From Rhodocyclaceae bacterium (GTDB lineage: Bacteria > Pseudomonadota > Gammaproteobacteria > Burkholderiales > Rhodocyclaceae), in NCBI GenBank assembly GCA_020445665.1, contig JAGRGD010000278.1, positions 12,987-76,986 on the forward strand: a stretch of DNA of 64,000 bases, read 5' to 3'. Made by a program: the position numbers and the translations under genes. The notes beneath the pieces were generated by a model, which was not told the DNA's origin, made no database searches, and worked only from the letters and a program-made list of their open reading frames with translations. Positions 24,674 through 45,492 of this stretch are shown one piece after another. Each line of letters begins with the position of its first letter. Positions within the stretch are counted from its first letter, which is position 1.

Positions 24674-24922
24674 TCGGGGGACTGGGTGAGGTTCGGTGGG
24701 GAGGCGAATGGTGGCACGGGCGGGCCCGCAGCTTCAATAGCCAGGCGCCGGGCGCCGGAATCTTTGCGTTTCCTTATAAGTGTTGCGGAATATTTGAAAA
24801 CGCTACCGTTCGTCCCTTTGGCAATTGACGTGGGAAATTGTTCCTCAAGAATGTCATAAACCATCACACGAATGGGGTTTTCAGCACCTCGAGCCTGCTC
24901 AATGACATTTCAGGGGGTACGC

Positions 24923-26884
24923 ATGTCACATCTCAAGCATCTGATGCGGAAGTCGCTTCCGCTATTCGTCGCCGTTGCGGCTTTGCCAGCGACGGCCCTT
25001 GCCGACCTCTCCGCGGTTCCTGACTCACTGGAACTGGTGCGTGGCGAAAAGGCCCGTATCCAGATTCTTGGCGCGGAGAGTCGTCTGCGGCTCCGGAACT
25101 CCGATGACGACGTCGTCGAGGCAAAGCTGAGATACGGGACGGTCCGTGTCGAGGCCGATCACACCGGTACGGCGATCCTGCGTGTCTGGGACCGGGAGTC
25201 GTCCGTATCGATTCCGGTCACGGTCCGGCGCGAGCGGGACGACGACGACCATGAAGGCGGCGGCGACAATGGCGGCGGTGGCGATACCGGCGGTGGTGGC
25301 GATACCGGCGGCGGGGGCGGGGGAGGCGGCACACTCAGCGGTGACTTCACCCTGCTGGGCTGGAACGATCTGGGCATGCACTGCATGGATGCCGACTATT
25401 CCGTGTTCTCGATCCTGCCGCCCTTCAACAACCTGCACGCGCAACTGGTCGGCAAGAATGGCCAGGGTGTCGTGACCCAGGGCGTCACTCTGACATTCCA
25501 GTCGCTGGCGGACCCGGATGGTTCGGTCAACAGCTTCTCGACCGGGAAGACCAACTTCTGGCAGTACGAGGATGTGCTGTTCGGGGTGTCCCTGCCCGAT
25601 GGCCGCGGTCTCGCGGGCTATGACACGGCCGGCCCTGCGGCTCAGACCATGGTGCTCGACGCCGAGCGGGGCCAGTTCGTGGCCGAGGGTATCCCGATTA
25701 CGCCGTACGACGACGCCGGCGCCAAGAACTTCTATCCGCTGGTAAAGGTCTCGGCCCACGATGGCAACGGCAACCTGCTCGCCGAGGCCCGTGTGGTGCT
25801 GCCGGTCTCGGACGAGATGACCTGTGTCGGCTGTCACGGATCCGGCGCTGGCCCGGATGCACGGCCCCAGGCCGGATGGGTCAATGATCCGGACCCCGAG
25901 CGCGACTATCGGCGCAACATCCTGCGCCTGCATGACGAGGAGCAGCTCGGCAATCTGCGCTTCCAGGAAGCCCTCACCCAGTTTGGCTACTCGCCCGCCG
26001 GTCTGCAGGCCACCGCAGACAGTGGTCGTCCGATCCTGTGCGCGAGCTGTCACGGTTCCAACGCGCTGCCGGGCACCGGTACCGAAGGGATCAGCCCGCT
26101 GACCGAAGCGATGCACAAGCAGCATGCCAGCTCGGCAGACCCGGTCACCGGTCAACTGCTCGGCGACAGCACCAACCGCAGCGCCTGCTATCAGTGCCAC
26201 CCGGGCTCCGAGACCCGCTGCCTGCGGGGGGTGATGGGCAATGCCGTCGAAGCGGACGGCTCGCTCTCGATGCAGTGCCAGAACTGCCACGGCCAGATGG
26301 CCGACGTCGGGCGGGAGGGGCGCGTAGGCTGGCTCGAGCAACCGGACTGCCAGAGCTGCCACCATGACGGCCAGCGCGAGACCTCGTCGCTCGACACGGA
26401 GGGTCAGCTCAAGACCTGGGCCGACACCCGCTATGCCACGAACGCCAACGTACCGGAGGCGGGCTTCAACCTATACCGCTTTAGCAAGGGCCACGGCGAG
26501 TTGCAGTGCGAAGCCTGTCATGGCTCAACCCATGCGGAGTATCCGAGTTCCCACCGCAACGACAACCTGCTCTCGCAGGATGTTCAGGGGCGGGACGGCA
26601 CGATCGGCGAATGCACGGCCTGCCATGCCACGATGCCAGACACCACCACTGGTGGCCCCCACGGCATGCACACGGTCGGCAGCCGCTGGGTCGACCGGCA
26701 CGAGGATGTGGCCGAGCGCAGCACCCGGGATTGCGCTTACTGCCATGGTTCGGACTTCCGCGGCAGCCCGCTGTCCGAGGTGAAGGTGGCGCGCAGCTTC
26801 CGGGCCGAGGGCCGCACCGTCCAGTATGCGGTAGGGGATCAGGTCGGTTGCTACGACTGCCACAACGGGCCCGACGGCGACTGA
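24923..26884 (+). CDS. Secreted multihaem c-type cytochrome (9 CXXCH) with an N-terminal Ig-like domain and a Gly/Asp-rich linker
   Basis: The signal peptide is MSHLKHLMRKSLPLFVAVAALPATALA. A Big2-like segment (LELVRGEKARIQILG...TGTAILRVWD) follows, then the linker GGGDNGGGGDTGGGGDTGGGGGGGG. Haem motifs are CVGCH, CASCH, CYQCH, CQNCH, CQSCH, CEACH, CTACH, CAYCH and CYDCH. Confidence 0.85.
   Translation: MSHLKHLMRKSLPLFVAVAALPATALADLSAVPDSLELVRGEKARIQILGAESRLRLRNSDDDVVEAKLRYGTVRVEADHTGTAILRVWDRESSVSIPVTVRRERDDDDHEGGGDNGGGGDTGGGGDTGGGGGGGGTLSGDFTLLGWNDLGMHCMDADYSVFSILPPFNNLHAQLVGKNGQGVVTQGVTLTFQSLADPDGSVNSFSTGKTNFWQYEDVLFGVSLPDGRGLAGYDTAGPAAQTMVLDAERGQFVAEGIPITPYDDAGAKNFYPLVKVSAHDGNGNLLAEARVVLPVSDEMTCVGCHGSGAGPDARPQAGWVNDPDPERDYRRNILRLHDEEQLGNLRFQEALTQFGYSPAGLQATADSGRPILCASCHGSNALPGTGTEGISPLTEAMHKQHASSADPVTGQLLGDSTNRSACYQCHPGSETRCLRGVMGNAVEADGSLSMQCQNCHGQMADVGREGRVGWLEQPDCQSCHHDGQRETSSLDTEGQLKTWADTRYATNANVPEAGFNLYRFSKGHGELQCEACHGSTHAEYPSSHRNDNLLSQDVQGRDGTIGECTACHATMPDTTTGGPHGMHTVGSRWVDRHEDVAERSTRDCAYCHGSDFRGSPLSEVKVARSFRAEGRTVQYAVGDQVGCYDCHNGPDGD
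25274..25309 (+). repeat. 2 x 18-nt tandem repeat inside the cytochrome linker (encodes GGGGDT twice)
   Basis: GGCGGTGGCGATACCGGC is directly followed by GGTGGTGGCGATACCGGC (1 mismatch). It sits within a longer GGN run at about 25253..25330. Confidence 0.8.
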
Positions 26885-26988
26885 TGCCGGTCGGATAAGG
26901 CCGCCTTCGCGGCCTGGGCCCCCGGCGCCATCCGATTGGATGTCGTCGGGGGCTAAATTTATCCGGATCGTCGCCGTAAATCCGTGCC

Positions 26989-27897
26989 ATGAGCATGATG
27001 GCCGACGATCCCGTCTTCATCCCTTCCAGCGTGCGCGCGGCCATCACGATCCGCAATGCCGCGGAGGATCCGTGCATCAATGATGTGGCGATCCAGCGTA
27101 TGGTGGCAGCCGAGCCGACGGTGGCCGCAGCGCTGCTCCGGCTCGCCAACAGCGCGACCTACCGTCGGGGCAAGCTCGTCGAATCCGTCGCGGATGCGGT
27201 CATGCTGCTTGGCATGGGGGAGGTCCGCGCGGTGGCATCCCAGGTCGCGATGCTGCAGATCGTCAGGGGCATTCGCGGTCGTGCTGCGCGCCTGGTGGCG
27301 GAGAACCTGCTGCTGCACTCCATCTCGGTATCCACATTCGCCGAACAGATTGCGCGGGGCATCGACGGCTGCGAGCCGGGGCGGGTTGCTACCCTGGGCC
27401 TGTTCCACGAGATGCCGACCTTCCTGCTGCTGGCCGGATCCAACCAGTCACCCGAGAAATTCGAGACCCTCGCCGACATCAGCCGGCTCGCCGAGACGGT
27501 GCCGCTGCGCAGCTTCGAACTGCTGATGCAGGACTTCGGCCTGCACTCGCTGGCCATCCCCCGCGTGGTGGAAGCCGAGGCCGTCGAGCAGGCCCACCTC
27601 TACGTGACTCACCCCAATCCCCTGCGCATGCACCCGCTGGAAGGTGGCGAGCGAAAGGGCATGGCGCCAGAGCAGATCGTCCTCCTCCAGGCGATGGCCG
27701 ATGCCGCCTATGTGACCCTGGTCGAGGGACCGCTTCCGGCTTCCCGGGATGCGCACCCCCCACCCTGCGAGGAGATGCTCGAGATGCCCGTCGAGGAAGC
27801 CGATGGGGAGCCCGTCACGCCCCCCCAGGCGCCGCCGCGCGGTGGCCTGGTGGCGAAACTTCAGGCCATGCTGGGGACGCTGTTCGGATCACGTTGA
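26989..27897 (+). CDS. HDOD domain-containing signalling protein
   Basis: VAIQRMVAAEPTVAAALLRLANSATYRRGKLVESVADAVMLLGMGEVRAVA is the typical HDOD core. Confidence 0.8.
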   Translation: MSMMADDPVFIPSSVRAAITIRNAAEDPCINDVAIQRMVAAEPTVAAALLRLANSATYRRGKLVESVADAVMLLGMGEVRAVASQVAMLQIVRGIRGRAARLVAENLLLHSISVSTFAEQIARGIDGCEPGRVATLGLFHEMPTFLLLAGSNQSPEKFETLADISRLAETVPLRSFELLMQDFGLHSLAIPRVVEAEAVEQAHLYVTHPNPLRMHPLEGGERKGMAPEQIVLLQAMADAAYVTLVEGPLPASRDAHPPPCEEMLEMPVEEADGEPVTPPQAPPRGGLVAKLQAMLGTLFGSR

Positions 27898-27961
27898 GCG
27901 CTGGCGGCTGGCCCGCAGCCCCGTGGCGCCGGGTGAGCCAGGAAAAGGAGATCGACCGAGT

Positions 27962-28341
27962 ATGGAAGGCAAGGATTCACGCGACCCGCATCTAGACCAC
28001 GGCATCCAGGATGCCCTGTTTCGCGGCCTGCTCGCGGTGCTGGACAGCGGGCAGGATGCAACCGAGATGCTGGCGGCGGTCGAGAACTTCTCGCGGCGCC
28101 ACTTCGAAGCCGAGGAGCACCTGATGGAGAACCACGGCTACCCGAACATCGACGAACACCGGGCCGAACACCACAGGTTGCTCGACGAGGTTGTGGCGAT
28201 GTGCGCCCTTGGCCCCGCCGACCCGGGCCTGCCAGAGGCCGTCGCCCGCGTGATGGCCGGCATGCGGACCCACATCGACGAAGTGGACGGGAAGCTCGTG
28301 GCCTTCCTGGCGGCCCAGGAAAGCCCGCCGCCCGGACGTGC

Positions 28342-28345
<4 letters not shown>
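27962..28345 (+). CDS. Hemerythrin-like (bacteriohemerythrin) protein
   Basis: The start is MEGKDSRDPHLDHGIQ.... His/Glu ligand spacing is H-FEAEEHLM...EHRAEHHRLLDE...HIDEVD. AAGGAGA lies upstream of the ATG at 27962. Confidence 0.75.
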
Positions 28346-30006
<1,661 letters not shown>

Positions 30007-30080
30007 GGCTTGCGTTTGCTTGTGATCGGGCAGTGCGCAAGCTTACCCGAGGTCGGCCCAGCGTGCGGGCCGGGTGCCGC

Positions 30081-30716
30081 TCAGGCGGCCAGTGGCGCTG
30101 CCGACTCGGGCGCCTCGACTGGTCGATGGAGCAGCACGGCGGGCGCGCCGACGCGGCTGCAGATGCGCTGTTCGCCGATCTGTGAAAAGCCGAAGCGCTG
30201 GATGTAGAAGCGGGCGTGGCGCGGATTGACCTCAATGACCAGATCGGTGATCGGTGGCTGCTGCGAGAGGTGGCCGATGGCCTGCTGAAAGAGGGCGAGC
30301 AGCATCGTCGCCGGAGGGCAGGGCGCATCAATGGCGAGCCGCGTCACTTCAGCCAGGCGCCGGCTGGCGCCGCGCAGGCGATCAATTTCGTGGCGGTAGT
30401 GGGCGTCGGCCTGGAGCCCGGCAATGGAGTCCAGCCCGAGGCGCAGGGTCGCCCACAGATCGGCGCCCTTGCGCGCCAGCACCGTGACGCCCGGGAGGCG
30501 CTCGCCAGTGCCGCCCACGCCGACACGTAGCCCGCGCTGCTGATAGCGGCGGTTGGCAAGGGACTGGGCGGCGGCGAGGTGTCCGGTGCGGACCTCGAAG
30601 CGCAGTCCGCAGAGGGGATCCTGAGCGCGGGACAGATCGTGCTCGAAACCGTAAGGGCACTTCGGGCGGGGCGTTCCCGCGTGCCACAGGGAGGGTACGG
30701 ACAACATCGGGGTCAT
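30081..30716 (-). CDS. FeeM-like N-acyl amino acid synthase (GNAT-fold acyltransferase) candidate
   Basis: LRFEVRTGHLAAAQSLANRRYQQRGL...TLRLGLDS..GLQADAHYRHEIDRLRGASRRLAEVTRLAI...TDLVIEVNPRHARFYIQRFGFSQIGEQRICSRVGAPAVLL matches the remembered FeeM-family layout, especially the VNPRH.RFY..LGF...G motif. GGGAGA lies 6 nt before the ATG. The gene sits 35 nt downstream of the bactofilin gene. Confidence 0.6.
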   Translation of the reverse strand: MTPMLSVPSLWHAGTPRPKCPYGFEHDLSRAQDPLCGLRFEVRTGHLAAAQSLANRRYQQRGLRVGVGGTGERLPGVTVLARKGADLWATLRLGLDSIAGLQADAHYRHEIDRLRGASRRLAEVTRLAIDAPCPPATMLLALFQQAIGHLSQQPPITDLVIEVNPRHARFYIQRFGFSQIGEQRICSRVGAPAVLLHRPVEAPESAAPLAA

Positions 30717-30751
30717 CGGAGGGTCTCCCTGCGTCGCGGGTCGTCGGTCGG

Positions 30752-31348
30752 TCAGGCTTTTGAGGCGACCAGGGGCTTGACGGTGGCAGACTTGGCTGCG
30801 TCTTCGGAGTTCATCGACTGCACATCGCCGCTGACGATGCCGCCCTCCTCGATCAGGATCTTGCCGTAGCGGATCACGCCGCTGACCTTGCCGGTGGCGT
30901 GGATGATGAGTTGCTTGCGGGCGGTCAGTTCGCCCTCGAAATCACCATGGACCTCGGCCACGTCGATGCAGACCTTGCCCGAGAAAGAGCCCTTCTCGGC
31001 GATGCGGATGACCCGGCTGTCCATCGTGGCCTCGACCCGGCCTTCGACGACGAGGGTGTCGCAGTCGAGGATCTCGGCGCCCTTCAGTTTCACGTCCGGT
31101 CCGACAATCAGCTGGCTGCCCATGGTCTCGGTCTCGGTGGCGCTGTTGTCGGTGGCGTTCATGGCGGCGGTCTCTTGCGGTTGGGTGGCGTCCGGAGTGT
31201 CGTTGGAAAGGCTGCCGCCAGCGTGTGCTGCCGAGGCGGCCGTGAGGCTCGAAGGGCCGCGATTGGCCAGGTTGTTCGGGTACGTCGGGCGACGCTCCGG
31301 CACGCTCGCACCGGTGGGCTTCGCGAATAGATTCTGCTTGTTGAACAT
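30752..31348 (-). CDS. Bactofilin family polymer-forming protein
   Basis: The C-terminal beta-helix repeat is LIVGPDVKLKGAEILDCDTLVVEGRVEATMDS..GSFSGKVCIDVAEVHGDFEGEL..ATGKVSGVIRYGKILIEEGGIVSGDV. The N-terminus MFNKQNLFAKP resembles bactofilin membrane-targeting peptides. AGGAAGG lies before the ATG at 31348. Confidence 0.8.
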   Translation of the reverse strand: MFNKQNLFAKPTGASVPERRPTYPNNLANRGPSSLTAASAAHAGGSLSNDTPDATQPQETAAMNATDNSATETETMGSQLIVGPDVKLKGAEILDCDTLVVEGRVEATMDSRVIRIAEKGSFSGKVCIDVAEVHGDFEGELTARKQLIIHATGKVSGVIRYGKILIEEGGIVSGDVQSMNSEDAAKSATVKPLVASKA

Positions 31349-31403
31349 GAGCCTTCCTCTTGCTGTGAGATGAGTGCGGTCGCGGACGCCGCTGGCCGAT
31401 GAT

Positions 31404-31419
31404 GGCAATTGGCGTGCCA
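31404..31419 (-). promoter_or_regulatory. Sigma54 (-24/-12) promoter of the bactofilin operon
   Basis: The minus strand reads TGGCACG-ccaa-TTGCC, against the consensus TGGCACG-N4-TTGCW. The predicted start is near 31393, 45 nt before the ATG. Confidence 0.75.
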
Positions 31420-31438
31420 GCAAGGGAATATTTCACAG

Positions 31439-31451
31439 AATCAATCGTTTG
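31439..31451. promoter_or_regulatory. IHF consensus site between the UAS and the sigma54 promoter
   Basis: AATCAATCGTTTG matches WATCAANNNNTTR at every defined position. Confidence 0.55.
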
Positions 31452-31495
31452 TCTCGCCGGTCGAAGATCCCGATCCGGTCGGAGGGGTCTGAAGC

Positions 31496-31513
31496 TGTCG
31501 CTATCTGGCGACA
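31496..31513. promoter_or_regulatory. Palindromic enhancer-binding-protein site A (TGTCGC-N6-GCGACA)
   Basis: It has the TGTC-N10-GACA form. Its centre is about 111 nt upstream of the predicted minus-strand start. Confidence 0.6.
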
Positions 31514-31564
31514 CTGCAGAAGGGCCATATTGCCAATCGCCAGCACTGGCGCGGTGGTGACGGG

Positions 31565-31582
31565 TGTCGTGGAAAGACGACA
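31565..31582. promoter_or_regulatory. Palindromic enhancer-binding-protein site B (TGTCGT-N6-ACGACA)
   Basis: This is a second TGTC-N10-GACA palindrome, 69 nt from site A and about 180 nt upstream of the predicted minus-strand start. Confidence 0.5.
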
Positions 31583-31682
31583 GGTGCGCCTGGCCGAGAG
31601 GTTGCATTTACTTACCTCGCACGCTCGTCCGATTCCCTAAACTCGCCGGCATAATTCCGCCCCCCCGCCCACACCGGTCCGG

Positions 31683-33095
31683 ATGCGCAGTCCGTCCTTC
31701 CGCCAATATCTCCTCCTCGCTTTCCTGTTGATCATCGCGGTCCTGACCGCGGCGGCCATGCAGGGCCTGTTTGTGCTCGAGGACTTCGCCAGTCGCAGCC
31801 GCAGTGCCGCGTCGGACGCGCTGCGCCTGTCGCGCGTGGTGCAACTGCTCGGAGAGCGTGCCGTCGACATGACCCGCAGCGCGCGCCAGTACCAGGTCCT
31901 CGGCGAAGCCGCGCTGCTTGAGCGCTTCTCGGAGAGCCGACGCGAGGCCGACGAGGCCATCGTCGGCCTGTCGGGTCTGGCCATGAGCGACCAGGCGGCG
32001 CTTACACAACAGCTTTCCGACTGGCGCATGAGTGCGGAGCGGGTCGAGCACCTCCTGCGGGACACCTCGAATGCCGAGGCATTGGGCGTGGAACTGAACC
32101 GCCTGGCCGCACTGGGCGGATTGGTTTCCGGTGCCGCACGACAGACCATCGAGCGTCACAACCAGTTGCTGTTCGACGCGCTCGACGACAATCGCGCGCG
32201 GCTGACGACCCACGTCTTCGCCGCGGTGTGCATCGGGATCCTGCTGGCCCTGGCGTTCGGGACCTGGCTGGTCCGCTCCCTCGGGCGGCTCGAAAAGGCG
32301 ATCGAGGCGCTCGGCGACGGCTATTCCGACCAGGCGGTGGTGGTCGGCGGGCCCCACGACCTGCGCCAGGTCGGCGACCGCCTCGAGTGGCTGCGGGAGC
32401 GGCTCAACGAGCTGGAAGCCGACCGCTCGCGCGTCCTGCGCCATGTCTCCCACGAACTGAAGACGCCGCTTGCTGCCATGCGCGAGGGCGTCTCGCTGCT
32501 CGATGACCGGATCCTGGGACCTCTGGTGGCACCCCAGCGGGAGGTGGTCGGCATCCTGAAGCACAACTGTGCGACGCTCCAGACCCGGATCGAGGCCCTG
32601 CTGGGGGTCAACGCCGCGGCCTTCGATGCCCGGCGCCTGAGCCTGGCCCGCATCGAGCCGGTGGCCCTGCTGCGTCGCGTGGCGGCGGATCAGGCGCTAC
32701 AGGTCCAGCAGCGTCGCCTCGAGCTGTCGGTCGAGGGTGAGGCCGATCCGATCGAGGCGGACGGCGAGAAGATCTCGCTGGTGCTCGCCAACCTGCTCGC
32801 CAACGCCATCGCCTTCAGTCCCGAGGGCTCGCTGATCCGGCTGATTGCCCGGCGCCAGGGCAAGCGCCTGCTGCTCGACTGTATCGACGAGGGGCCGGGG
32901 ATTGCGCCGGAGGACGCGCAACGGATCTTCGATCCCTTCTACCGCGGCAGCCTGCAGCCCGAAGGGCGTGAGAACGGGACCGGCATCGGGCTGTCCATCG
33001 TGCGGGAATATGCCATGGCGCATGGCGGCAGCGTGGTGCTCGTGCCGGCCGCCCTGGGCTGTCATTTCAGGGTTGAACTGCCATATGAACGTTGA
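31683..33095 (+). CDS. glrK: Sensor histidine kinase, GlrK/QseE type
   Basis: The layout is two TM segments, HAMP, the H-box region VLRHVSHELKTPLAAMREGVSLLDDRILGPL..QREVV.IL and an HATPase domain. It reads like E. coli GlrK as remembered and has the same gene order, kinase-lipoprotein-regulator. Confidence 0.75.
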   Translation: MRSPSFRQYLLLAFLLIIAVLTAAAMQGLFVLEDFASRSRSAASDALRLSRVVQLLGERAVDMTRSARQYQVLGEAALLERFSESRREADEAIVGLSGLAMSDQAALTQQLSDWRMSAERVEHLLRDTSNAEALGVELNRLAALGGLVSGAARQTIERHNQLLFDALDDNRARLTTHVFAAVCIGILLALAFGTWLVRSLGRLEKAIEALGDGYSDQAVVVGGPHDLRQVGDRLEWLRERLNELEADRSRVLRHVSHELKTPLAAMREGVSLLDDRILGPLVAPQREVVGILKHNCATLQTRIEALLGVNAAAFDARRLSLARIEPVALLRRVAADQALQVQQRRLELSVEGEADPIEADGEKISLVLANLLANAIAFSPEGSLIRLIARRQGKRLLLDCIDEGPGIAPEDAQRIFDPFYRGSLQPEGRENGTGIGLSIVREYAMAHGGSVVLVPAALGCHFRVELPYER

Positions 33096-33671
33096 ACGAG
33101 CCGTGGCTCTGGCGACCATCGTCGCCGTCGTGAGCGGCTGCGCGCTCGAGCGCGCAGCCCCGCCACCGGGCGTGGAAGAGCCGGATCCGCCGGTGATCGT
33201 CGAGCAGGCCTCGCCGGTGCTGGCCGCCGACGTGAACCTGCGGGCAATCCTGGCCTTCTATCGCAAGTCGCGGGGCATGTCCCGGGCCGAGCTCATCGCC
33301 GAGCGCAAGGCCCTGGAGGGCAGCGACGGGCGGCCCCTGGACGAATTGCGCCTGGCGATGCTGCTCGGTCAGGAGCGCAGCGACCTGGTGCGCGCCCTGG
33401 GCCTGCTCGACGCCATCGCCCGCTCCGACAATCCACAGGCCCTTGCCCTGCAGCCGCTCGCCCGACTGCTCTCCGACCAGTACGCCGAGCGGCTCAAGCT
33501 CGAGACCCAGTCGGAGCGGCTCGGGGTCAATATCCGCGACGCCGAGAAGCGGGCGGCCGCAGCGACAGCGCAGGCACGTGAACTGCAAGAGAAGATCGAC
33601 GCGCTCGCCGAGATCGAGCGCAACCTGCCCGGGCGGCCTGCGCCTCCCGTGCCGACAGGAGGAACCAACCG

Positions 33672-33675
<4 letters not shown>
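33085..33675 (+). CDS. Lipoprotein encoded between kinase and regulator (positional analogue of QseG/YfhG)
   Basis: MNVERAVALATIVAVVSGC|A carries a lipobox and the C-terminus is a coiled coil. It overlaps the kinase by 11 nt and the regulator by 4 nt. Confidence 0.6.
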
Positions 33676-35069
<1,394 letters not shown>

Positions 35070-35102
35070 ATCTTGCCAAAACAACGGCTTGTGCAGTTCA
35101 TG

Positions 35103-35136
35103 CGGCATCCTGTCGGGGTGACCCGACAGGATGCCG
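35103..35136. promoter_or_regulatory. Perfect 15-bp-arm palindrome containing site C (TGTCGG-N6-CCGACA)
   Basis: CGGCATCCTGTCGGG-gtga-CCCGACAGGATGCCG. The TGTC-N10-GACA core is at 35111..35128, centred about 110 nt upstream of the predicted start of the BON gene. No U-tract follows, so it is a poor terminator. Confidence 0.6.
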
Positions 35137-35168
35137 GTGCGTGATCGGGGCGTGGGGCGATATTGCGT

Positions 35169-35181
35169 TTTCAAGTCGTTG
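35169..35181. promoter_or_regulatory. IHF-like site (one mismatch) between site C and the sigma54 promoter
   Basis: TTTCAAGTCGTTG compared with WATCAANNNNTTR. An AT-rich stretch (GAATAATAAATAGATT) lies next to it. Confidence 0.35.
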
Positions 35182-35203
35182 AATAATAAATAGATTGGCG
35201 GGT

Positions 35204-35219
35204 TGGCACGATGCTCGCA
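35204..35219 (+). promoter_or_regulatory. Sigma54 (-24/-12) promoter of the BON-domain gene
   Basis: TGGCACG-atgc-TCGCA against the consensus TGGCACG-N4-TTGCW. The predicted start is near 35230. Confidence 0.7.
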
Positions 35220-35270
35220 AAGGTCCCGGCTGACGCGGTCGAAACTGACACCGCAACGCAGGAGACACCC

Positions 35271-35603
35271 GTGAAGCAACGCAGTGCCATTGCAGGGATT
35301 CTGGCCACCGCGGCCCTGGCCTTCGCCATATCGCTGAGCGCCAATGCCGAGAACGGCAGCGCCCGGCGGGTTTCGGTCGATACCGCGGTGGACGCGGCCA
35401 TCAACGGCAAGGTCGCGGCGGCTCTGATGTCGGATCCCGGCCTGCTCGGTGCGCGTATCGATGTAGACACTCACGATGGGATCGTCCGGCTTGCGGGAAC
35501 CGTGGTCGGTGCCGCCGACCTGCGCCGGGCGCTTGATATCGCATCGCAGGTCGAAGGTGTACGGCGGGTGGACAACCTGCTGGAGGTTACGCGCCGACCC
35601 TAG
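35271..35603 (+). CDS. Secreted BON domain protein (OsmY-like, single BON)
   Basis: A GTG start at 35271 sits 6 nt after AGGAGA. The signal peptide is VKQRSAIAGILATAALAFAISLSANA. The BON core is GKVAAALMSDPGLLGARIDVDTHDGIVRLAGTV...VEGVRRVDNLLEV. The track ATG at 35211 lies inside the -12 element, so I reject it. Confidence 0.8.
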   Translation: MKQRSAIAGILATAALAFAISLSANAENGSARRVSVDTAVDAAINGKVAAALMSDPGLLGARIDVDTHDGIVRLAGTVVGAADLRRALDIASQVEGVRRVDNLLEVTRRP

Positions 35604-35616
35604 AAACCTCTTGGCG

Positions 35617-35650
35617 GCTGCGCTGCTGGACGCAGCGCAGCTCCTTTTTT
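35617..35650 (+). terminator. Intrinsic terminator after the BON gene
   Basis: GCTGCGCTGC-tggac-GCAGCGCAGC is followed by TCCTTTTTT. Confidence 0.8.
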
Positions 35651-35694
35651 CCGGTTGTGAGGTGCCGGGTCCGTCGAGCATCGGATCCGTTGAA

Positions 35695-35731
35695 GGGAAT
35701 GAACGACCCAGTCGTTCATTCCCCTTTTTTT
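35695..35731 (+). terminator. Second hairpin plus T7 tract, overlapping the stop codon of the convergent ABC gene
   Basis: GGGAATGAACGAC-cca-GTCGTTCATTCCC is followed by CTTTTTTT. The T-run is the antisense of the Lys-Lys codons at the end of the ABC gene. Confidence 0.6.
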
Positions 35732-37509
35732 GTGACGCCGAACTGCAGCCCGGCAAGGTGGGCGTAGAGCCCCCCGTGCGCGAGCAGCGTCTCGTGGTCT
35801 CCCGACTCGACGATCCGGCCCTGGTCGAACACCAGGATCCTGTCGGCCCGCCGGACGGTGGCCAGGCGGTGGGCAATGACAAGGGTCGTGCGCGTGCGCA
35901 TGAGGCCATCGAGCGCCGCCTGCACGAGCCGCTCGCTGTCCGCGTCGAGGGACGAGGTGGCCTCGTCGAGGAGCAGGATGGGTCGGTCGGCCAGTATCGC
36001 CCGGGCGATCGCGATGCGCTGGCGCTGGCCGCCGGAAAGGCGCACGCCTCGCTCGCCGAGCTCGGTGTCCAGCCGGTCGGGCAGCCGGTCGATGAACGCC
36101 GTCGCATGAGCGGCGTGGCAGGCGGCCTCGACCTCCTCGTCGCGCGCCTCCGGGCGGCCATAGCGGACGTTCTCCCGCACGCTGGTGGCGAACACCACCG
36201 GGTCCTGGGAGACGAGGGCCATGCGGGCGCGGACCCGGGCCGGATCCGCCCGCGCGATATCGACGCCATCGATCTGAACGCTACCGGATGCCGGGTCGTA
36301 GAAGCGCATCAGGAGTTGATAGACGGTGCTCTTGCCGGCGCCCGACGGCCCCACCAGGGCGACTGTCTCGCCCGGCGCGATCGCGAAATCGACCAGGTCG
36401 AGTGCCGGGTTGTCCTCGCGGCCGGGATAACGGAAGACCACCTGCCGGAAAGTGATCTCGCCGCGGCCCGGCTCAGGCAGTGGCAGCGGGTCTGTCGGAG
36501 GCCGGATGGCGGCGGGCGTGTCGAGCAGTTCGAGCAACCGCTCGGCGGCGCCGAGGGCGCGCTGCAGGTCACCCCAGACCTCGGACAGCGCGCCAACGGA
36601 GCCGGCGAGCAGCGCAGCGTAGAAAATGAAGGCCGACAGCTCGCCTGGCGACAGCTGGCCGGCGAGGACATCATGGCCGCCGAGCCATAGGATGGTCGTG
36701 ACGCCACCGAATACCAGGAGCAGGACCGCCGCGACCAGCCGGGCGCGCATCCGGATGCGCGCACGCGCGGTGTCGAAGCCGGCCTCGACCCGCTCGGCGA
36801 AGGCAGCCCGGTCGAGGGCCTCGTGACCGTAGGCCTGGACCAGCCGGATCTCGTGGATGCTCTCGTCGATGCGATTGCCGAGTTCGGCGACGTGGGCCTG
36901 GCTCAGGCGTGACAGACGCCTGACGCGTCGACCGAAGAGCAGGATCGGCAGCACCACCAGTGGCACCCCCGCCAGCGTCAGCAAGGCGAGCTTTAGGCTG
37001 GTCGTGAGCAGCATGACCAGCGAACCGGCCAGCAGCAGAACATTGCGCAGGGCCATCGACAGGCTCGATCCGACCACGCTCTCGATCAACGCCGTGTCGC
37101 CGGTCAGCCGCGAGATCACGTCGCCGGTGCGGCCCGCCTCGAACCAGGCCGGCGGCAGGCGGAGCAGGTGATCGAAGACCCTGCGGCGCAGGTCCGCCGT
37201 GATCCGCTCGCCGAGCCATGAAACGTTGTAGAAGCGCACGTAGGTGGCGATTGCCAGCACCGTGATGGTCGCAAGCATGAACAGCAGCGTCCGGTCGAGC
37301 CAGGCCGGATCCCCGTCGGCAATGCCCTGGTCGATGACACTGCGCAGGCCTTGTCCCACCGCGAGCATGGCCCCCGCTGCGACGAGCAGGGCTGTTGCCG
37401 CGAGCGCGATTCGTCCCCGGTGGGGGGCAAGGAGGGTGCAGAGCAGGCGCAGCGCGCGGCGGGCGGGGGGCAGGGGCGTCACGATCCCAGTATGCCGCAG
37501 GGAGCCCAC
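35716..37509 (-). CDS. ABC transporter, fused permease/ATP-binding protein (MsbA/ATM1-like exporter)
   Basis: A six-helix TMD is followed by an NBD with GPSGAGKST, LSGGQRQRIAIARA and LLLDEATSSLD. Confidence 0.9.
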   Translation of the reverse strand: MGSLRHTGIVTPLPPARRALRLLCTLLAPHRGRIALAATALLVAAGAMLAVGQGLRSVIDQGIADGDPAWLDRTLLFMLATITVLAIATYVRFYNVSWLGERITADLRRRVFDHLLRLPPAWFEAGRTGDVISRLTGDTALIESVVGSSLSMALRNVLLLAGSLVMLLTTSLKLALLTLAGVPLVVLPILLFGRRVRRLSRLSQAHVAELGNRIDESIHEIRLVQAYGHEALDRAAFAERVEAGFDTARARIRMRARLVAAVLLLVFGGVTTILWLGGHDVLAGQLSPGELSAFIFYAALLAGSVGALSEVWGDLQRALGAAERLLELLDTPAAIRPPTDPLPLPEPGRGEITFRQVVFRYPGREDNPALDLVDFAIAPGETVALVGPSGAGKSTVYQLLMRFYDPASGSVQIDGVDIARADPARVRARMALVSQDPVVFATSVRENVRYGRPEARDEEVEAACHAAHATAFIDRLPDRLDTELGERGVRLSGGQRQRIAIARAILADRPILLLDEATSSLDADSERLVQAALDGLMRTRTTLVIAHRLATVRRADRILVFDQGRIVESGDHETLLAHGGLYAHLAGLQFGVTKKGE

Positions 37510-42060: not shown

Positions 42061-45000
42061 TCAGGCGTTGGCGCGGGCGGCCGGGGACTGGTTGCGGTAG
42101 CGCCAGGACGCGCGGGTCCATTCGGGCGGATTGCGCCACTGGCCCATCCACGCCTGCAATTCGTCTGGCTGCAGGGCACCAGCGACCGCGTAGCCCTGGC
42201 CGTGGGTGGCGCCGAGCATGATCAGGGCCTCGCCGTGTTCGATCGACTCGACACCCTCGGCGATGGCCGTGCGGCCGAAGACCCGGGTCAGGCCCAGGAC
42301 GCCCTCGACGATCGCCCGGTGCTCCGGATCGTCGAGGATGTCCCGCACGAAGGACTGGTCGATCTTCAGGGTCGCGGCCGGCAGGTGCTTGAGGTAGGTC
42401 AGCGAGGCGTAGCCGGTACCGAAATCGTCCAGCGCGAAGCTCACGCCGCGGCGGGCGCAGCGCTCCATCAGGGTCACCACCCGTGGCAGGTCGGCCAGCG
42501 CCGCCGACTCGAGAATCTCGACCTCGAGGAGGTGGGGCGGGAAGGCGGGGTGGCGCGCCAGCAGGGCCTCCAGGCGGACAGCGAACTCGGCGCCCAGTAT
42601 CTGGCCTGCCGTCACGTTCACCGATACCGGGATGGATTGCCCGGCGGCGTGCCACTCGGCCGCCTGGGCGACGGCGGTCTCGAGACACCATTCACCGATC
42701 GCGACCAGCAGCTCGTCGTCGTTGATGCGGGAGATGAAGTCGGCGGGCATCAGCAGGCCGCGCTCGGCGTGCTGCCAGCGCAGCAGGGCCTCGACACCGA
42801 TCACCTTGCCGTCGTCGAAGCGGACCTTGGGCTGGTAGTGCAGGCGCAGCTGGCCCTTGTCGAGGGCCGCGCGCACCTCGCAGACCGCGCGCCGGTGGAT
42901 GCTGAGGCGCCGATCCTGCTCGGTGTCGAACAGGTGGCAGGCGTCCCGTCCCCCCTGCTTGGCCGAATAGAGGGCCTGGTCGGCGTGGCGGAGCAGGGTG
43001 TCGGGGTCGCCGCCGTCAAGGGGATAGAGGGTGGCACCCACCGAGGCGGTCAGGCGGACGACACCGGAGGGCCGCTCGAAGGGCAGGCGCATGCGGGTTA
43101 GGAACTCGGCGACCCGGGCGTCACAGTGCTCGGGCGACTCGATATCGGTCAGGAGCAGCACGAATTCGTCGCCCCCCAGACGGGCCAGGGTGTCACTCGG
43201 GCCGAGCGCCTCCTGCAGCCTTCGCGACACCTCGATCAGCAACTTGTCGCCTTCGGCCGCGCCCCAGCGCTCATTCACCGGCTTGAAGTGGTCCACATCG
43301 AGCATGCACACCGCGAGCAGCCGGTTGTTGCGCTGGGCCATCGCGATCGCCTGCTGCATCAGCTCGCCCAGCTGGTTGCGGTTGGGCAGGGCGGTCAGCG
43401 CGTCGTGGCGGGCGAGGTGGGCGATCAATTGCTGGCTGTCCCGCAGATCGGAGATGTCGCTGGTGAAACCGATGTAGTAGCCGACCTTGCCGTCGCGGTC
43501 CGGCATCGACACGATGCGGGTGCTCTGGAGGTAGAAGCTGCCGTCCTTGCGACGGTTGCTGAGCTCGCCCTGCCAGATCCCGTCTTCCCGCAGGGTGGAC
43601 CACAGGGCCCGGTAGAAAGCCGGTTCCTGGTGTCCGGACGAGAGAATTCGCGGATTTTGGCCGATCAGTTCCTTGCGGTCATAGCCGGTGGACGCGCAGT
43701 AGGCTTCGTTGGCCTCGATGATGCGCGCCTCGGCATCCGTGACGATGATGCCTTCCTGGGCCGAGGCGAACACGCGGGCCCACAGGGCCAGGTTGTCCTC
43801 GATCTGGCGAATCGCGGTGATGTCGGTCTGGGCGAAGACCACCCGCTCGGGCCGGCCGTTGTCGTCGCGAGAGACGACGCGGCCCCGCTCCCGCACCCAG
43901 ACGTCGCTGCCGTCGGGGCGCCGCATGCGATGCTCGCTGCGGAAGGAAGCCGTCTGGCCGGCCAGATGCCGGTCGAGATTCTGCAGGCAGCGACCCAGGT
44001 CAGCCGGGTGAATGAGCCCTTCCCAGCTCTCCTGGCGGTCGTCGATGTCGCCGGCCTGAAGGCCGAGCTGGGCGAGCCAGCGGTGGGAATAGGTGATGCG
44101 CCGCGCGGCGACATCCCACTCCCGGATCCCGTTGTCGGCTTCGTCGAGGGCGGTCCGGTGGCGTTCCAGCTCGGCGATGCGTCCATCGCGCACGGCCAGG
44201 CGCTGGGTGGCGTCCTCGACGAGCAGGCCGGCCTGGCCGGGCCCGACCGGGAAGAGCCTCAGGTCGACGCGACGCGAACCGTCGGAGCCATCAAGCCGAT
44301 AGTCGCTGGCGTGCCAGGTGGTGCCTTCGCGTGCGACCCGGACGAGCTCGTCACGAATGCCCAGGGCGGCCGGGTCGGGCAGGCCGCTGTCTGCGGAGAC
44401 CGGCAGCAACTGACGCGCCACCGGATTGCAGGCGAACGCGACCGGCAGCCCGCGTCGGTCGGCGTCAAAACACACCACGCCGACCGGGGCGCCGGCAATC
44501 AGATGGTCGAGTCGTTGCTCACTGTTGCTGGCGCGCCGGGCGAAGCGGTACGCAATCAGGCAGGCAGCAACAAGCACTGCCAGGGTCACGGCGGCGCGGG
44601 CGATGGCCTGCTTCCATGGGGCGAGGATCTCGTCCTGTCGCTGGGAGACGCTGACGATCAGCGGATGCGGCTCGATGCGCCGGACGGCGATGCGTCGTGT
44701 CGCTTCATCGATGGGCGAGCGGGCGGTGAATATGGTTTCCGAGACACGACCGGCCAGCAGGTCGGCGACCTCGGGGAGCGTGACGCGCGAGCCGATCAGA
44801 CTCTCGGTGAACGGGTGACGCATCAGCAGGGTGGCTTCGCGGTTCCAGACGGCCACTGAGGTGCCGGCGCCCAGGCCCAGATCCCGATAGAAGGAGAGGA
44901 AGGTGCGCTCGAGACCGACGTGTGCTGCCAGCACACCGGCGAAGTTGCCCGCGGGGTCGGTGACGGGCTGGGCCAGCAGGAGCCCCCAGCGGCCGCTGTG

Positions 45001-45492
45001 CTGGCCTCGGACGGTGGCGGTCAGCAAGGGCTGCCCGGGGTGGTTTCGCAGCGTCTCGAAGTACGCTTCGCCGGCCATGGTGCCGCGCGCCGATACGCCG
45101 GCCGAACTGGCGACCAGCGTGCCATCCGCCTGGGCCAGCATCAGGTCATCGACCGCGGGGGTCTGGGTGACGGACTGGGCAAGGACGGCGGAGAGGGCAG
45201 CGGGGTCGATGCTGGCATTGGCCAGGTAACCGCTTGTCGTCAACTCCAGCCCGGCGTGGTGGAGCCCCAGCAGGGTGGCGTCCATGACACCGCTGGCCTG
45301 CTCGCTGACCAGGCGTGCCAGCGAGGTGAGCCGTTCGCTGGCGTCGGCCTCGAGTGCCTGACGCTGACGCACCAGATCGACGACGATCCAGGTGGCGACC
45401 AGCAGGGCAACGAACCACAGGAGCAGGAGGGGGCGCGGCGCGCGGGTCATGAGGGGCGTTGTTCGCGGATGTCGGTCGCGCGATTCATTCAT
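42061..45492 (-). CDS. Membrane sensor with periplasmic (Cache-like) domain, PAS domains, GGDEF and EAL domains
   Basis: The layout is TM, a periplasmic region of about 250 aa and a second TM, then PAS repeats. A GGDEF domain (RLGGDEFVLLL) and an EAL domain (EALLRW...DDFGTGYASL...KID) follow. Confidence 0.9.
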   Translation of the reverse strand: MNESRDRHPRTTPLMTRAPRPLLLLWFVALLVATWIVVDLVRQRQALEADASERLTSLARLVSEQASGVMDATLLGLHHAGLELTTSGYLANASIDPAALSAVLAQSVTQTPAVDDLMLAQADGTLVASSAGVSARGTMAGEAYFETLRNHPGQPLLTATVRGQHSGRWGLLLAQPVTDPAGNFAGVLAAHVGLERTFLSFYRDLGLGAGTSVAVWNREATLLMRHPFTESLIGSRVTLPEVADLLAGRVSETIFTARSPIDEATRRIAVRRIEPHPLIVSVSQRQDEILAPWKQAIARAAVTLAVLVAACLIAYRFARRASNSEQRLDHLIAGAPVGVVCFDADRRGLPVAFACNPVARQLLPVSADSGLPDPAALGIRDELVRVAREGTTWHASDYRLDGSDGSRRVDLRLFPVGPGQAGLLVEDATQRLAVRDGRIAELERHRTALDEADNGIREWDVAARRITYSHRWLAQLGLQAGDIDDRQESWEGLIHPADLGRCLQNLDRHLAGQTASFRSEHRMRRPDGSDVWVRERGRVVSRDDNGRPERVVFAQTDITAIRQIEDNLALWARVFASAQEGIIVTDAEARIIEANEAYCASTGYDRKELIGQNPRILSSGHQEPAFYRALWSTLREDGIWQGELSNRRKDGSFYLQSTRIVSMPDRDGKVGYYIGFTSDISDLRDSQQLIAHLARHDALTALPNRNQLGELMQQAIAMAQRNNRLLAVCMLDVDHFKPVNERWGAAEGDKLLIEVSRRLQEALGPSDTLARLGGDEFVLLLTDIESPEHCDARVAEFLTRMRLPFERPSGVVRLTASVGATLYPLDGGDPDTLLRHADQALYSAKQGGRDACHLFDTEQDRRLSIHRRAVCEVRAALDKGQLRLHYQPKVRFDDGKVIGVEALLRWQHAERGLLMPADFISRINDDELLVAIGEWCLETAVAQAAEWHAAGQSIPVSVNVTAGQILGAEFAVRLEALLARHPAFPPHLLEVEILESAALADLPRVVTLMERCARRGVSFALDDFGTGYASLTYLKHLPAATLKIDQSFVRDILDDPEHRAIVEGVLGLTRVFGRTAIAEGVESIEHGEALIMLGATHGQGYAVAGALQPDELQAWMGQWRNPPEWTRASWRYRNQSPAARANA

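Follow-up and report, generated by a model that had tools for sequence, protein, structure and literature searches.

The sensor module and its flanking genes

We analyzed a 64-kb stretch of DNA (hereafter the window) from a metagenome-assembled genome (MAG) of a member of the Rhodocyclaceae (Betaproteobacteria). Positions 29500-36500 were read directly, and genes were taken from a list of open reading frames (ORFs) with their translations. At the center of this region lies an operon for a sensor kinase, a lipoprotein and a sigma-54 enhancer-binding response regulator, which likely forms a three-component envelope sensor of the QseE-QseG-QseF (GlrK/GlrR) type with two direct local targets, one on each side. 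The genes are as follows.

30081..30716, minus strand: gene for a FeeM-like (GNAT-like) N-acyl amino acid synthase; second in the leftward unit, 35 nt past the bactofilin stop codon
30752..31348, minus strand: bactofilin gene, first gene of the leftward unit
31683..33095, plus strand: GlrK/QseE-like sensor histidine kinase gene; two transmembrane segments, periplasmic domain, HisKA with H257, HATPase
33085..33675, plus strand: QseG/YfhG-like lipoprotein gene; lipobox VVSGC, 11-nt overlap with the kinase gene, C-terminal coiled coil ending IER-x-L
33672..35069, plus strand: GlrR/QseF-like sigma-54 enhancer-binding response regulator gene, 4-nt overlap with the lipoprotein gene
35271..35603, plus strand: gene for a secreted single-BON-domain (OsmY-like) protein; GTG start, AGGAGA ribosome-binding site
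35616..35642, plus strand: intrinsic-terminator-like hairpin with T-run, ending the BON unit

With regard to the regulator, Pfam finds the receiver, the sigma-54 AAA+ and the Fis-type helix-turn-helix domains. The GAFTGA motif is located at residue 221, and the phospho-acceptor D61 aligns with D56 of Escherichia coli GlrR. Both proteins share 58% identity over the full length (437 residues) and the identical recognition helix RNRTEFY-LL. This is also reflected in the NCBIfam scores, i.e., the best model is GlrR with 620 bits (619.9), compared to 413 for NtrC and 386 for ZraR. Related betaproteobacterial proteins are named GlrR by JGI/KEGG-style annotation (PMC8895600). For the kinase, Pfam reports the HisKA and HATPase domains, H257 was located, and BLASTP yields 32% identity to E. 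coli GlrK over 450 residues (residue 25 to 470, E 8e-57). Since the alignment runs from residue 25 to the C-terminus, it covers the periplasmic sensor.

The lipoprotein, which is 100% identical to a protein on record from a Rhodocyclaceae MAG, was compared on the level of its family. An exhaustive representative search resulted in 1497 clusters at 50% identity with E 0.001 or better, and a diverse profile of this family aligns to E. coli QseG over 104 columns (probability 90.9%, E 1.2e-6), including a common C-terminal L-x-x-L-x-x-IER-x-L motif. In two sets of family members, PF13942 (YfhG lipoprotein) is the top Pfam family for 18/31 and 15/49 proteins, respectively. A narrow family profile reached a probability of only 14% against QseG, a search of PDB sequences by family profile yielded nothing meaningful, and a second, word-indexed homologue search with the family alignment returned close members only and did not widen the taxonomic range. 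Based on the diverse profile, the protein is most probably a remote homologue of QseG/YfhG. As in QseEGF systems, its gene is placed between those of kinase and regulator, and the agreement extends to the lipobox and the family profile. The initial annotation of the window had assigned the module to the GlrK-lipoprotein-GlrR type with the gene order of E. coli. The identity values of regulator and kinase and the lipoprotein profile bear this out, and the gene, overlap and promoter coordinates given there all agree with the sequence and the ORF list.

Both flanking units encode proteins with recognizable domains. The FeeM-like protein matches Pfam PF21926 (FeeM) with 117.5 bits and the FeeM structure PDB 2g0b with E 6.5e-9 and is thus, judged by its domain, presumably an N-acyl-amino-acid-synthase-like enzyme. 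Its gene accompanies the bactofilin gene in 43/63 related loci. The bactofilin itself is identified by PF04519 (62 bits over residues 81-176). Its N-terminus MFNKQNLFAK resembles the bactofilin membrane-targeting sequence, for which the consensus MFSKKKK has been published (PMC12448750), and suggests a membrane-type bactofilin; an MF[NS]K start is found in 47/66 bactofilin homologues. The rightward gene encodes a protein with PF04972 (BON, 58.9 bits over residues 41-107) and a signal peptide, read from the translation, that ends ANA-EN. It matches the NCBIfam OsmY model weakly (45.7 bits, cutoff 174), and while OsmY has two BON domains, the window protein has one.

Predicted activator sites and sigma-54 promoters on both flanks

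The palindrome TGTCG-N8-CGACA occurs four times exactly in the window (at 31496, 31565, 35045 and 35111), while 0.10 occurrences are expected by chance and none of 100 shuffled windows reached four. Two of the palindromes lie on each side of the kinase-lipoprotein-regulator operon. Given this excess and the placement of all four next to the operon, we conclude that the sites are not due to chance. The sigma-54-type motif TGGCAC-N5-TYGC is likewise enriched, with 3 occurrences compared to 0.43 expected. Transcription starts predicted from the -12 GC are 31393 for the left promoter (minus strand) and 35230 for the right one (plus strand), and all site positions are measured from these. The elements on both flanks are listed in the following; sites without an assigned strand are given without one.

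31404..31419, minus strand (31419-31404): left -24/-12 element TGGCACGCCAATTGCC; predicted start at about 31393, 45-nt leader
31439..31451: left integration host factor (IHF)-like site AATCAATCGTTTG, exact to WATCAANNNNTTR; centered at about -52
31496..31513: predicted left proximal GlrR-type activator site TGTCGCTATCTGGCGACA; centered at -111
31565..31582: predicted left distal GlrR-type activator site TGTCGTGGAAAGACGACA; centered at -180, 100 nt upstream of the kinase start codon
35045..35062: predicted right distal GlrR-type site TGTCGGTCATGGGCGACA; centered at -176, within the last codons of the regulator gene
35111..35128: predicted right proximal GlrR-type site TGTCGGGGTGACCCGACA; centered at -110
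35172..35184: right IHF-like site CAAGTCGTTGAAT, YAA-N4-TTGATW with one mismatch; centered at about -52
35204..35219, plus strand: right -24/-12 element TGGCACGATGCTCGCA; predicted start at about 35230, 41-nt leader

The geometry is nearly equal on both flanks, i.e., proximal sites at -111/-110, distal sites at -180/-176 and IHF-like sites at about -52. Each flank therefore shows the layout of a sigma-54 promoter: GG at -24, GC at -12, canonical spacing, an enhancer 100-200 nt upstream and an IHF-like site in between. The initial annotation had described a -24/-12 element, an IHF-like site and a palindrome about 111 and about 110 nt upstream on the respective flanks, which matches the measured centers. 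Its perfect palindromes on both flanks were also recovered, although there are four rather than three, the one at 35045-35062 having been missed.

For GlrR, TGTCN10GACA has been published as consensus, with IHF sites close by (PMC3045617), which agrees with the enterobacterial motif given in the initial annotation. All three E. coli glmY sites start with TGTCG, and site 2 (TGTCGCCAGAAAGCGACA) is itself a TGTCG-N8-CGACA palindrome; the reverse complement of this site is identical to the window site at 31496 in 17/18 bases. At the sequence level, the combination known for activator sites of QseEGF systems (TGTC-N10-GACA and IHF upstream of a sigma-54 promoter) is thus present at both promoters. 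That is, the predicted sites fit the specificity expected for the GlrR family, to which the adjacent regulator belongs.

The two right-hand sites overlap with other features. The distal one is part of the regulator's reading frame; the closest relatives (L002-L008) have an exact site at this position, too, with differing spacers. The 3' coding end of the regulator gene would accordingly act as distal enhancer site for the BON promoter. The proximal site forms the core of a perfect inverted repeat (35103-35136) with 15-nt arms CGGCATCCTGTCGGG / CCCGACAGGATGCCG and a 4-nt loop, which lies 34 nt past the regulator stop codon and is not followed by a T-run. Its extension outside the half-sites is not conserved in relatives. 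The operon transcript might also end at this repeat.

Neither predicted leader (45 and 41 nt) has room for a GlmY-like small RNA (sRNA), as had been noted initially, and a search of positions 29800-36000 for Rfam families including GlmY/GlmZ gave no match.

Two further sigma-54-like motifs were rejected. The first, TGGCCGAGAGGTTGCA on the plus strand at 31590-31605, precedes the kinase gene and is placed symmetrically to the minus-strand promoter around the site at 31496, such that it would have made the left enhancer bidirectional. It is conserved in no related locus, including relatives with 90% protein identity, and is probably fortuitous. The second is the third TGGCAC-N5-TCGC occurrence (45110-45124, minus strand). 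Because it is located within an ORF of 1143 amino acids (42061-45492, minus strand) and no GlrR-type site is nearby, it is probably a chance match.

Conservation in related genomes

To compare related genomes, we collected 80 loci from a scan of one genome per species with the lipoprotein-family alignment and studied them in 12-kb pieces. Nearly all are labelled Rhodocyclales or unclassified Betaproteobacteria; among the taxa are Dechloromonas, Azonexus, Propionivibrio, Accumulibacter, Azovibrio, Cognatazoarcus and Zoogloeaceae. Cultured strains that carry the locus include Dechloromonas denitrificans ATCC BAA-841 (L034), D. hortensis MA-1 (L042), Azovibrio restrictus DSM 23866 (L025), Cognatazoarcus halotolerans HKLI-1 (L009) and Azonexus sp. 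IMCC34839 (L066). The gene order is conserved, i.e., FeeM-like and bactofilin genes are read leftwards and kinase, lipoprotein, regulator and BON genes rightwards, with an ettA-like ABC-F gene beyond the FeeM-like gene.

The regulatory elements co-occur with their putative target genes. For the left flank, the site pair together with the -24/-12 element is present in 59/63 bactofilin-bearing loci and in neither of the two loci without the bactofilin gene. For the right flank, site and -24/-12 element are found in 46/52 BON-bearing loci compared to 2/24 without BON (Fisher p 1e-11). Both the conserved synteny and these motif counts answer the question, raised by the initial annotation, of whether gene order and motifs persist in relatives.

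Also the spacings are restricted. The two left sites are 64-69 bp apart (mode 66, 61 loci), and the gap from the left proximal site to the T of the -24 element is 72-77 nt (mode 74, 62 loci). On the right, the respective gap is either 62-66 or 73-76 nt, i.e., there are two classes about one helical turn apart. Within the sites, spacers vary freely among the loci. Anchored alignments of 66 left and 54 right loci show the half-sites, a YAA-N4-TTGATT box and the -24/-12 element as the sole conserved islands. In each alignment the box, read in promoter orientation, coincides with the position of the IHF-like site of the window, while the intergenic DNA has otherwise diverged. Bactofilin leaders of the homologues, measured from predicted start to MF[NS]K ORF, typically comprise 25-66 nt (median 36).

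Exact sites are concentrated in regulatory regions, with 105 in 56 kb compared to 9 in the other 807 kb of the related loci. We inspected these nine palindromes and discarded them, since they represent a recurrent coding motif within the kinase gene or mis-binned cases. Homology, motif identity, geometry, conservation and co-occurrence are all directly visible in the sequences. The conserved islands, their fixed spacing and the co-occurrence of the elements with the target genes suggest that the local regulator drives both flanks, such that the footprinting in the 80 loci strongly supports what the initial annotation had proposed from a single genome.

Proposed mechanism and alternative explanations

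We therefore consider it most likely that the local regulator activates its own neighbors and not, as in E. coli, an sRNA gene. According to the proposed mechanism, a periplasmic or outer-membrane cue would, via the QseG-like lipoprotein, stimulate the GlrK-like kinase, which would autophosphorylate on H257 and pass the phosphate to D61 of the regulator. The phosphorylated regulator would bind the tandem TGTCG-N8-CGACA sites, which are about 66-69 bp apart and located near -110 and -180. IHF bound near -52 may bend the DNA such that the AAA+ domain with its GAFTGA loop reaches the sigma-54 holoenzyme at -24/-12, and ATP hydrolysis by the regulator would open the promoter. The leftward output would consist of the bactofilin with its membrane-targeting-type N-terminus and the FeeM-like N-acyltransferase, the rightward output of the secreted BON-domain protein. 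Given two local protein-coding targets, the output would be envelope proteins instead of a GlmY-type sRNA. In this scheme, binding, sigma-54 dependence, transcription starts, the signal and the physiological role of the targets are inferences.

Several observations weigh against this assignment. The regulator scores below the NCBIfam equivalog cutoff for GlrR (620 vs 763 bits) and is thus to be seen as member of a GlrR-like lineage, not as certified orthologue or equivalog. The window lipoprotein has no significant Pfam hit and no BLAST match to E. coli QseG, such that its homology to QseG is visible at the level of family profiles only. With regard to the promoters, the right -12 element reads TCGC instead of TTGC, and the strict -24/-12 criterion misses 4/63 left and 6/52 right promoters among the related loci. 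A simple scan found no sigma-70-like promoter for the kinase operon. The rpoN gene is not within the 64-kb window, so the presence of sigma-54 is deduced from the regulator and from existing knowledge on the order. Finally, the hairpin with 15-nt arms around the right proximal site could have a role at the RNA level.

The left site pair could instead mainly serve autoregulation, i.e., repress or activate the kinase operon via a sigma-70 promoter, with the minus-strand -24/-12 element being incidental. The left distal site indeed ends just 100 nt upstream of the kinase start codon, and the E. coli glmY sites are likewise found upstream of the kinase gene, where glmY is co-oriented with the latter. 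On the other hand, the minus-strand -24/-12 element and the IHF box keep a fixed distance to the sites in 59/63 loci, the plus-strand motif TGGCCGAGAGGTTGCA (31590-31605) is not conserved even in the closest relatives, the simple scan revealed no sigma-70-like promoter, and the right-hand sites, which track the BON gene, are left unexplained. As replacement for activation of the flanking genes we thus regard autoregulation as unlikely, while it could well hold in addition. Distinctly less probable is that both sigma-54 promoters are real but driven by another enhancer-binding protein encoded elsewhere, with the adjacency of the module being coincidental. Only 64 kb of the genome are visible, and the recognition helix is the same in at least two GlrR-like lineages of Betaproteobacteria, which makes cross-talk between activators conceivable. 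Yet module and sites are adjacent in about 60 genomes, the sites match the specificity of the adjacent regulator's own family, and the same adjacency recurs in independent GlrR-like lineages, which renders another activator improbable.

We give least credence to the palindromes being RNA or structural elements, i.e., repeated extragenic palindromes or hairpins that terminate or stabilize the regulator operon transcript at its 3' end. This would fit the right proximal site, which is the core of the perfect 15-nt-arm inverted repeat 34 nt past the regulator stop codon and for which close relatives carry GC-rich, partly palindromic spacers. However, conservation is confined to the TGTCG/CGACA half-sites, while the spacers vary and are mostly unable to pair, and no T-run follows the repeat. 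Furthermore, the genes on either side of the left sites diverge, and no transcript end would be expected there. The half-sites are identical to the GlrR consensus determined by experiment, and both the pair spacing of about 66 bp and the fixed distance to -24/-12 are maintained.

Comparison with known systems

In E. coli K-12, QseF activates glmY and rpoE (PMC6075780), and in Yersinia and Salmonella it activates glmZ, too (PMC3045617). 'QseF-like' activators also appear in a broad survey of sigma-54, which assigns them no regulon (PMC3162934). The window shares with the enterobacterial GlrK-QseG-GlrR system the kinase-lipoprotein-regulator order with overlapping reading frames as well as an enhancer in the intergenic region upstream of the kinase gene. 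Its regulator has the domain architecture and recognition helix of E. coli GlrR (58% identity), and as in E. coli glmY, an IHF-like site is found between enhancer and -24/-12 element.

The differences mainly concern outputs and promoter arrangement. While the enterobacterial targets include the sRNA genes glmY and glmZ, those of the window are predicted to be protein-coding with leaders of about 40 nt, for which Rfam finds no GlmY/GlmZ-like RNA. The left promoter points away from the kinase gene, in contrast to E. coli glmY, which lies just upstream of the kinase gene and is co-oriented with it, and a second promoter downstream of the regulator gene sets the window further apart from the enterobacterial system. 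Each window promoter has two sites about 66-69 bp apart compared to three for E. coli glmY, and the gap between proximal site and -24 is 75-76 nt vs 89 nt. Finally, the lipoprotein is QseG-like by profile comparison only, and the host is a betaproteobacterium, unlike the enterics.

A protein output as such is not without precedent. E. coli rpoE is a protein-coding envelope-stress gene that is directly activated by QseF/GlrR from upstream sites at a sigma-54 promoter (cited in PMC6075780), i.e., protein outputs were already known for the GlrR family. However, rpoE differs in that its product is a sigma factor and that it is not linked to qseEGF, while the predicted window targets are adjacent and code for envelope-associated proteins of structural or enzymatic type.

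Locally self-contained wiring is known from other regulators. In the ZraP-ZraS-ZraR system of E. coli and Salmonella as well as for PspF-pspABCDE, a sigma-54 regulator for envelope stress has as its main target a neighboring divergent small envelope-protective gene. In this sense, each is a locally self-contained envelope regulon with protein output, as may also hold for the window. They differ in regulator subfamily and binding sites, have no known lipoprotein co-sensor and target ZraP or PspA.

According to the initial annotation, no description of such a regulon was known. For the specific targets, this agrees with our search of the open-access literature, which found no paper linking bactofilin or BON/OsmY to sigma-54/RpoN or bactofilin to FeeM-type enzymes. 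It does not hold in general, given rpoE as protein-coding QseF target and the known ZraPSR design. Overall, the novelty concerns the outputs and the promoter arrangement; the regulator family and the mechanism were known before. Since the mechanism is textbook sigma-54 activation, the advance lies in wiring and biology and not in kind.

So far, QseE/QseF (GlrK/GlrR) has been studied almost only in Enterobacteriaceae, where glmY, glmZ and rpoE are the known direct targets. Our comparison suggests that the same machinery of sensor, regulator, sites, IHF and sigma-54 is also present in Betaproteobacteria, where it appears to be wired directly to neighboring genes for envelope-associated proteins. 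The locus is the first candidate case we found in which a bactofilin would be controlled by a sigma-54 activator that senses the envelope and is accompanied by an N-acyl-amino-acid-synthase-like enzyme. It furthermore offers compact reporters for the cue that is sensed by this sensor family and suggests how the enteric sRNA output may have arisen at a pre-existing enhancer.

Same design beside other GlrR-like modules

We also scanned metagenome contigs for TGTCG-N8-CGACA followed, after a gap of 58-80 nt, by TGGCAC-N5-TYGC, which resulted in at least 120 loci. Among the 120 matches listed, 49 show a second site about 64-69 bp upstream of the matched one, a spacing that is not given by chance. 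Many of the listed matches either follow a kinase-X-regulator module directly or are oriented divergently from one. Comparison of the regulators of these modules gives 52-65% identity, both with one another and with the window protein and E. coli GlrR; the recognition helix is kept in all that were compared.

According to Pfam, the downstream genes among the matches listed encode bactofilin, BON, glycine-zipper 2TM (SlyB/17-kDa-antigen-like) and secreted EF-hand proteins, one of the latter fused to a BON domain. Others encode small GerE/LuxR regulators, one GspG pseudopilin and one AsmA-family protein. Example loci are as follows.

L173, L182, L090, L135, L142, L179: glycine-zipper 2TM lipoproteins
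L129, L190, L191, L132: EF-hand proteins
L123, L153, L176: GerE/LuxR regulators
L082: GspG pseudopilin
L167: AsmA-family protein

In a second betaproteobacterial lineage (Denitratisoma and Burkholderiales assemblies), the site pair and a -24/-12 element come after the genes for kinase, lipoprotein and regulator. The middle one of these genes encodes a lipoprotein with an IER/MER-x-L tail.

Judged by these motif and gene arrangements, the enhancer-promoter design is not peculiar to the window and is widespread in environmental Betaproteobacteria. Many uncultured lineages have it as well, where the predicted targets are other small envelope proteins. This suggests a broad envelope-protein regulon for GlrR-like activators. 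One may go further and, tentatively, regard QseEGF/GlrKR-type systems as a broad envelope-response pathway of Betaproteobacteria and other environmental proteobacteria. The direct sigma-54 regulon would then consist of small envelope proteins (BON, glycine-zipper/SlyB-like, EF-hand) and in Rhodocyclales also of a membrane-binding bactofilin and a FeeM-like N-acyltransferase, i.e., a cytoskeletal scaffold with a lipid-modifying enzyme that is inducible upon envelope stress. The enterobacterial GlmY/GlmZ output would represent a lineage-specific replacement of the ancestral protein output at the same enhancer position. We consider this generalization possible but would at present rather lean against it.

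Two further arrangements were observed in the scan. A Denitratisoma sp. MAG of the second GlrR-like lineage (JAVSMO010000001.1, locus L203, 6405-6742) has about 135 nt behind its site pair and perfect TGGCACAGCGTTTGCT element; this segment closes with a long hairpin and a U-run, and an ORF of 105 amino acids begins just past it. The segment has no Rfam match and a fold z-score of just -1.2; it could be an sRNA or an attenuated leader. In a separate class (L086, L126, L133, L134 and others), a single TGTCG-N8-CGACA without second site is placed exactly 60 nt before TGGCAC, and about 32 nt past the -12 element begin ORFs with lengths from 361 amino acids (truncated at the contig end) to 445. A different enhancer-binding-protein system, one with a similar half-site, probably accounts for this class.

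Neighboring genes

Further upstream, the window encodes a multihaem cytochrome resembling MtrC/MtrF (24872-26884), a protein with an HDOD domain (26989-27897) and one with a hemerythrin domain (within 27749-28345). We saw nothing that connects these neighbors (24872-28345) to the sensor module.

Closer to the leftward unit, a gene for an ettA-like ABC-F ATPase (28342-30006, minus strand) lies on the same strand as the FeeM-like gene, 74 nt downstream. A simple scan of the window predicts no terminator between the two, and an ettA-like gene is found at the corresponding position in 50 related loci (Rhodocyclales). Given this conserved adjacency and the lack of a predicted terminator, read-through from the left sigma-54 promoter into the ettA-like gene is possible.

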